DNA from: Escherichia coli
GTDB taxonomy: Bacteria; Pseudomonadota; Gammaproteobacteria; Enterobacterales; Enterobacteriaceae
Reading direction: 5' to 3' (one strand)
Length of the DNA stretch: 64,000 nucleotides
Assembly: GCF_044324875.1 (NCBI RefSeq)
Contig: NZ_CP172185.1
The notes beneath the pieces were generated by a model. That model made no database searches. It had not been told where the DNA came from and saw only the letters and a program-made list of their open reading frames with translations. The position numbers were made by a program, and so were the translations under genes. This document shows positions 9,332 to 9,589 of this stretch, one piece after another (position 1 is the first letter of the stretch; each line of letters starts with the position of its first letter).

Positions 9332-9589
9332 TTAACAGAATCCTTTTAATTATCGTTAAACGTATTTTCTAAACGAATTTTAAACGGCGTCATTTATAAA
9401 TGACATACTGTTTTTAAAATAGAATGGTGATTAAAAACAATGAGAAAAATAGATGAAATAATATTATTTATCGATATGTGATCGAAGTCGAAATGAAATA
9501 TAAGGTGAACTACTGGTATTTGAAATTTATTTTTTTATATTGTCGGAATTTATCTGATTAACTGCCGGGCCGTAGACCCGACAATTATT

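Follow-up and report, generated by a model that had tools for sequence, protein, structure and literature searches.

A perfect 16-bp palindrome (GTCATTTATAAATGAC; 9389..9404, minus strand) lies just upstream of an OmpD-type porin gene in the 64,000-nt stretch of Escherichia coli DNA analyzed here (the window), and our tentative reading, held with a confidence somewhat short of even, is that it encodes a lineage-specific, weak 5′-terminal hairpin of the ompD-type porin mRNA leader. This reading draws on the sequence, the predicted fold, and the alignment to the Salmonella leader. Transcription from the ompD-homologous promoter would begin with the G at 9404 (minus strand), a start that we infer for E. 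coli from homology, and a 6-bp hairpin would take up the first 16 nt of the transcript (GUCAUUUAUAAAUGAC), leaving no nucleotide unpaired at the 5′ end. The palindrome seen in the DNA would then reflect a short RNA hairpin located precisely at the presumed 5′ end. Because the palindrome starts at the homologue of the Salmonella ompD +1, it would be the porin mRNA's own 5′-terminal stem-loop, and this Escherichia hairpin would replace the longer ompD-leader hairpin of other genera. 5′-terminal hairpins such as that of ompA slow 5′-end-dependent mRNA decay, and Emory, Bouvet, and Belasco reportedly found in 1992 that an ompA-type 5′-terminal stem-loop stabilizes mRNA. By analogy, the paired 5′ end of the porin transcript may slow 5′-end-dependent decay by RppH and RNase E, which would be its effect on mRNA stability. 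Being weak and attached to a promoter that looks quiescent, the hairpin may also be a vestige only.

Locus, sequence, and distribution of the palindrome

The spacer between yddG and the porin gene (9332-9589) is 258 bp long with a G+C content of 27%, in agreement with the AT-rich setting described in the original prediction. The palindrome within it consists of two 8-nt arms without an intervening spacer, occurs once in the window, and is perfect as had been claimed, with 8/8 complementary pairs; its position, given earlier as about 9397-9412, had been placed 8 nt too high. The center of the palindrome lies 65 nt 5′ of the porin ATG, which bears out the proposed promoter-proximal placement upstream of an OmpD-type porin (start 9331). 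The porin gene (8231..9331, minus strand; ATG 9331-9329) is an intact ORF of 366 aa in the window and carries the RefSeq annotation 'porin OmpC' next to yddG. It represents the full-length form of E. coli yddL (Z2239 in EDL933), is the positional orthologue of Salmonella ompD, shows 68-75% amino acid identity to yddG-adjacent porins of other genera, and is 72% identical to OmpD-named relatives. On the other side, the spacer is bounded by the stop codon of yddG (9590..10471, minus strand), encoding an aromatic amino acid exporter of 293 aa, and the palindrome is found 186 nt past this stop on the same strand. A search of the literature on yddL and Z2239 returned nothing on regulation.

The neighbors of the locus are yddG, fdnGHI, LRR effector-like genes, and narU, and the yddG-narU interval corresponds to the mosaic 'O-island 62' region (PMC3079680). 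A spacer between yddG and yddL/'porin OmpC' was present in 4261-4270 of 5426 complete genomes, and over 401 nt around the spacer the window is 100% identical to strain 7/2; in other Escherichia lineages, yddG directly adjoins narU. The 3′ two-thirds of the porin were found in only about 1100 of the 5426 genomes, where they fall into two haplogroups, one window-like (666 genomes) and one O157:H7-like (452 genomes). About 74% of the 4270 genomes with the palindrome-bearing spacer have truncated yddL only, and in K-12 the porin is likewise reduced to a 5′ fragment (yddL). The porin of E. albertii (CP034213.1, 1637-3514) is split by an IS1 insertion, that of strain 7/2 has an internal stop, and that of K-12-type strains is truncated; since these lesions differ between strains, the porin has been inactivated independently several times in Escherichia.

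Several other features of the window were observed around this locus. Two intact leucine-rich-repeat ORFs of 392 and 421 aa (5485-6663 and 6802-8067, minus strand; 31-39% G+C) lie downstream of the porin and belong to the O-island 62 mosaic (5485-8067). In strain 7/2, K-12, and O157:H7, only pseudogenes or fragments correspond to them, and slightly further on in the same interval of O157:H7 TT12A, RefSeq annotates an EspR1 T3SS effector LRR protein. On the plus strand, the fdnG region appears as two ORFs (10703-11290 and 11339-13750), a split that we take to be expected if the first stop is an in-frame TGA read as selenocysteine in the formate dehydrogenase-N alpha subunit, with no frameshift. 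A 26-bp perfect palindrome (AAATGGCGCTTTATAAAGCGCCATTT; 15493-15518), followed by TTTTTT, is found about 200 nt past an ORF ending at 15293, presumably fdnI by analogy with the fdnGHI layout of strain 7/2. With a REP-like GCCTGATAAGCGTAGCGCATCAGGC before it and a second hairpin (AAAACCCCCAGCTAGGCTGGGGGTT) after it, this palindrome looks like an ordinary intrinsic terminator.

Porin leaders of other genera and their predicted folds

With YddG as a positional anchor, 80 loci were retrieved, and a same-strand porin followed yddG in 35 of them, in Citrobacter, Salmonella, Enterobacter, and Lelliottia. These porins share 60-75% amino acid identity with the window porin, and the gene order, a porin directly after yddG, is that of ompD in Salmonella. 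Over about 180 nt next to the ATG, the upstream regions of the orthologues align well, with conserved blocks comprising GATCACA, GAAACTTATTATTGAA, TTTAAAAATAG, TGCCATTGAC, CGTTTA, and AAAATTATAAGGA, and the orthologue leaders are 69-82 nt long. In Salmonella, the distance from the G of GCCATTG to the ATG is exactly 69 nt in both loci (2/2), consistent with the mapped ompD 5′ UTR of −69 to −1, whose 'tight secondary structure' has been put forward to explain the targeting of the coding sequence by four sRNAs (PMC3333887). The first G of the palindrome aligns with this −69 G, and the alignment is free of gaps over the first 35 leader columns. On this basis, the palindrome region corresponds to an ompD-type porin leader and appears homologous to the Salmonella ompD 5′ UTR; the promoter block, the CRP-like half-site, CGTTTA, and the Shine-Dalgarno region are homologous as well. 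The start is mapped in Salmonella, whereas that of E. coli is deduced, giving a putative 5′ leader of 73 nt (9332..9404, minus strand) by homology to the orthologue leaders. This leader contains the Shine-Dalgarno sequence AAGGA (9341-9345) and three CGTTTA units with a 13-nt period (CGTTTAAAATT, CGTTTAGAAAATA, and CGTTTAACG; 9346-9385, minus strand). CGTTTA is almost invariant in the orthologue leaders and is also found twice in Enterobacter and Lelliottia; the repeat could be a protein site, an Hfq site, or part of an inner stem.

The palindrome itself is restricted to Escherichia in this comparison. Conservation in ompD or nmpC orthologues, which the original prediction had proposed to look for, was found neither in the 27 distinct non-Escherichia leaders, where the palindrome is absent from 27/27 and the homologous 16 columns form only 2-5 of 8 pairs, nor in K-12 nmpC, whose upstream region has neither the palindrome nor an ompD-type leader. 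The earlier suggestion of nmpC as a source of comparison was dropped on that account. Two further candidates were rejected: taking the palindrome as homologous to GTCATTTAAAAAT, found upstream in the Salmonella and Citrobacter −10 region, would need two indels of ~16 nt, compared with none in the colinear alignment, and a porin relative from a metagenome (L094, 85% identity) is unrelated in its upstream region and differs in its neighbor.

In the mRNA sense, the predicted fold of the palindrome is a 6-bp stem capped by a UAUA loop (−3.3 kcal/mol), spanning +1 to +16 if the start equals that of Salmonella, in which the conserved 5′ arm GUCAUU pairs with AAUGAC (columns 11-16). The 5′ arm occupies the same aligned column as GCCAUU in Salmonella, and the 5′ end is predicted to be paired from +1 in both organisms. 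Their pairing partners differ: in Salmonella, +1 to +7 pair with +25 to +31 around an inner stem in a predicted terminal hairpin spanning +1 to +31 (−10.4 kcal/mol), whereas in E. coli +1 to +6 pair with +11 to +16, and the Salmonella sequence is no DNA palindrome (4-5 of 8 pairs). As a whole, the E. coli leader is not unusually structured (z = −1.2). RNAalifold on 12 Citrobacter/Salmonella sequences paired columns 1-7 with columns 26-32, and on 15 Enterobacter/Lelliottia sequences it paired columns 1-6 with columns 38-43, within an 11-nt insertion. In both of these clades, then, the 5′ end would be sequestered, with a different 3′ arm in each. Joint folding of all 28 leaders with RNAalifold yielded no shared structure, since each clade uses its own 3′ arm, and the clade alignments showed conservation and wobble changes only, with no double compensatory change for any stem. 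E. coli has lost the ancestral 3′ arm: both ancestral arms are altered (AATTCG and AATACG versus AATGG), and a new arm, AAATGAC, directly follows the conserved 5′ arm. The E. coli 5′ nucleotides are thus modeled as paired from +1, as are those of E. albertii and the other clades, with no unpaired 5′ nucleotide if transcription starts at 9404.

Within Escherichia, E. albertii has the same yddG-porin spacer, and its element (GTCATTTGCAAATGGC) retains a 7/8 dyad with three differences from E. coli, in a setting of appreciably diverged flanks. Two of these differences form a central AT-to-GC change that falls in the RNA loop and is symmetric in the DNA, and the third, A15 to G, yields a U·G pair when read as mRNA, and folding still predicts the hairpin (−2.7 kcal/mol). 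By our own rough estimate, three stem-compatible substitutions have a probability of ~0.09 under neutrality, which is suggestive, not decisive. O157:H7, in which the porin is intact, has the same A15G, U·G variant, with the same predicted energy (−2.7 kcal/mol). Of the six sampled E. coli variant haplotypes, four are changed inside the palindrome and two outside; besides A15G, one loop change (A10G) and two stem-breaking changes (T5C and G1A) were seen, and the sampled carriers of T5C and G1A have truncated yddL only.

Promoter-like elements and alternative readings

The promoter that the hairpin reading depends on, P1 (9411..9440, minus strand), has a −35 element TTGTTT (9440-9435), an 18-nt spacer, and a −10 element TAAAAA (9416-9411). 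It is homologous to the Salmonella ompD promoter, which reads TTGAAC-18-TAAAAA in the same columns, and matches the consensus at 7/12 positions, under the threshold of the promoter scan; its −35 element is not kept in E. albertii. An alternative promoter-like site, P2 (9377..9406, minus strand), combines ATGTCA (9406-9401), an 18-nt spacer, and TAAAAT (9382-9377). It matches the consensus at 9/12 positions, the best score of any sigma-70-like site close to the gene on the porin strand. Upstream of both, a CRP-like site (TGTGATCGAAGTCGAA; 9477..9492, plus strand) matches 8 of the 10 specified consensus positions (two mismatches to the CRP core), and the half-site GATCACA is retained by E. albertii as well as by every orthologue. 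The center of the site is at −80.5 from the P1 start (−80.5/−81.5 across orthologues), which is close to class I spacing for a putative CRP site and favors P1, and at about −114.5 from the P2 start, which would be unusual and counts against P2.

Available transcription data were searched for yddL/b1472, for MG1655 positions near 1546101 and 1546067, and for EDL933 RS10615. No start upstream of the porin is listed in the EDL933 Cappable-seq tables or in the accessible K-12 start-site tables; the sole match, at 2028453, is internal, 119 nt inside the EDL933 porin coding sequence, and was recorded under one condition. At this locus, the one promoter detected by RNA polymerase SELEX is an 'internal' one that lies between yddL and yddK. 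The porin promoter looks quiescent under laboratory conditions. The missing start, the poor match of P1 and the loss of its −35 element in E. albertii, where the P2 elements are kept, the weak predicted stem, the lack of double compensatory changes, the stem-breaking variants, and the chance rate of such palindromes all weigh against the hairpin reading. The spacer also holds a second perfect palindrome of 14 bp (AAATAATATTATTT; 9456-9469), overlapped by TCGATAAATA (9465-9474, minus strand), a sequence that differs at one position from the high-affinity H-NS motif TCGATAAATT; these features (9456-9474) would suit an AT-rich promoter that is possibly silenced by H-NS.

That the palindrome has no function is a serious possibility, which we also place well short of even: it would have arisen by chance in DNA that is rich in AT and under weak constraint, in front of a gene in decay, or through quasipalindrome mutation bias, which may have both created it and kept it perfect. 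The whole window contains three perfect palindromes whose arms are 8 nt or longer. Across 200 dinucleotide shuffles the average was 1.3, with one or more in 74% of them; the palindrome is therefore statistically unremarkable, real and not beyond chance on the whole-window scale. One of the three, a perfect 16-bp palindrome (CCATTTCATGAAATGG; 29063-29078) inside a 1015-aa ORF (27486-30533, minus strand), is probably due to chance and exemplifies the background rate. For the 258-bp spacer alone, the probability of such a palindrome is about 0.022 (5000 shuffles). The absence of the palindrome from all non-Escherichia orthologues, its polymorphism within E. coli, the large share of carrier genomes with truncated yddL only, and the missing upstream start in the accessible EDL933 and K-12 data all favor a lack of function. 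Quasipalindrome template switching is a mutational bias of E. coli that corrects imperfect inverted repeats, and it would explain the symmetric central AT-to-GC change of E. albertii without selection. Against this, the 5′ boundary of the palindrome matches to the base the homologous +1 and the 5′ arm of the stem conserved in two other clades, a coincidence that we estimate at about 1 in 250 spacer positions and that comes on top of the 0.022, and none of the three differences in E. albertii would disrupt the RNA stem. If the palindrome is without function, it would serve as a reminder that chance yields about one perfect 16-bp palindrome per 64 kb of this genome.

A DNA operator, as the original prediction had envisaged, is unlikely. 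A dimeric regulator would bind the dyad, which, if P2 is used, covers about −34 to −19 with 8/8 pairs over the −35 element and spacer, and it would repress by occlusion or, in the manner of MerR, activate from the spacer. The superior match of P2 speaks for this arrangement, as does E. albertii, which keeps ATGTCA, the 18-nt spacing, and the TA..AT of the −10 element (TACCAT) along with a dyad in which the central change is symmetric; the 3′ arm, moreover, lies within the P2 spacer, where sequence usually varies freely. A 16-bp perfect dyad with an AT-rich center over a possible −35 element and spacer also resembles LexA, TetR, LacI, and MerR-type operators. The likeness ends there, since this palindrome comes without a cognate regulator, recurrence, a known-motif match, or conservation beyond Escherichia. 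None of the neighboring genes named above is a regulator gene, no second copy was found in the 64-kb window with up to three mismatches allowed, and none of 24 transcription factor consensus strings (including CRP, FNR, NarL 7-2-7, Fur, TyrR, ArgR, PhoB, LexA, and NsrR) fits; within two mismatches, only degenerate AT-rich IHF and Fis motifs were matched. Both E. albertii and the O157:H7 strains whose porin is intact are fixed for TGGC in place of TGAC in a half-site. With P2 as the promoter, the conserved CRP-like site would sit at its unusual distance, and in all other genera the dyad is missing even though the promoter block is conserved. The two observations that had been named in advance as counting against an operator, a lack of conservation in orthologous promoters and a location inside the transcribed leader, were largely made, with E. 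albertii keeping 7/8 of the dyad; the operator proposal is left without support.

A more far-reaching proposal, which we regard as improbable, is that the dyad is the operator of an Escherichia-specific regulator acting on P2 and silencing the O-island 62 OmpD-type porin until a host signal is received. A milder proposal concerns the RNA: in three enterobacterial clades the mRNA 5′ end would have been kept sequestered, each time with another 3′ arm. Should the operator version hold, the 'quiescent' porin would be conditionally expressed in pathogenic lineages, e.g., O157:H7 and phylogroup D/F.

The stem of an independent small RNA or a terminator of the yddG transcript, for which a hairpin-forming site downstream of yddG on the same strand might be taken, is very improbable and was rejected: the stem is AU-rich rather than G+C-rich and has no U-tract after it, the scan found no terminator-like site in 9200-9700, no Rfam family matched at E ≤ 10, and a G+C-rich hairpin right after yddG (about 9555-9573) is a better candidate for the yddG 3′ end. 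From the earlier suggestion of an sRNA stem, the RNA stem survives in spirit, as the possible 5′ end of the porin mRNA itself, and the separate sRNA does not, given the lack of an Rfam match, a terminator, and a signal of its own transcript. The hairpin that immediately follows the yddG stop (GTCGGGTCTACGGCCCGGC, read on the minus strand; 9539-9585) has no U-tract, is nested in an 8-bp inverted repeat (ATTGTCGG/CCGACAAT), and was not called by the terminator scan; it may be a yddG 3′-end structure.

Related systems and significance

Returning to the hairpin reading, the closest functional parallel is provided by ompA-type stabilizers, in which the mRNA of an abundant outer membrane protein likewise begins with a hairpin and has no unpaired 5′ nucleotides, the mode proposed here. 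They share no sequence homology with the palindrome, whose stem is much weaker, and a stabilizing effect is proposed for it by analogy. In its expression, the porin resembles quiescent or decaying E. coli porins such as ompN and the nmpC of DLP12, which are paralogous general porins and often pseudogenes; as in these cases, transcription from its own promoter was not detected in the accessible data sets. The upstream region of K-12 nmpC differs, as noted above.

The stakes of the finding are small and its interest is minor. If the hairpin reading is true, the OmpD-type porin of E. coli would be one more case of a porin mRNA keeping its 5′ end paired despite the replacement of the pairing partner in evolution, a modest point on the maintenance of 5′-end protection. 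It would also provide a defined element for asking why the OmpD-type porin is silent in E. coli, while its Salmonella orthologue is a major outer membrane protein.
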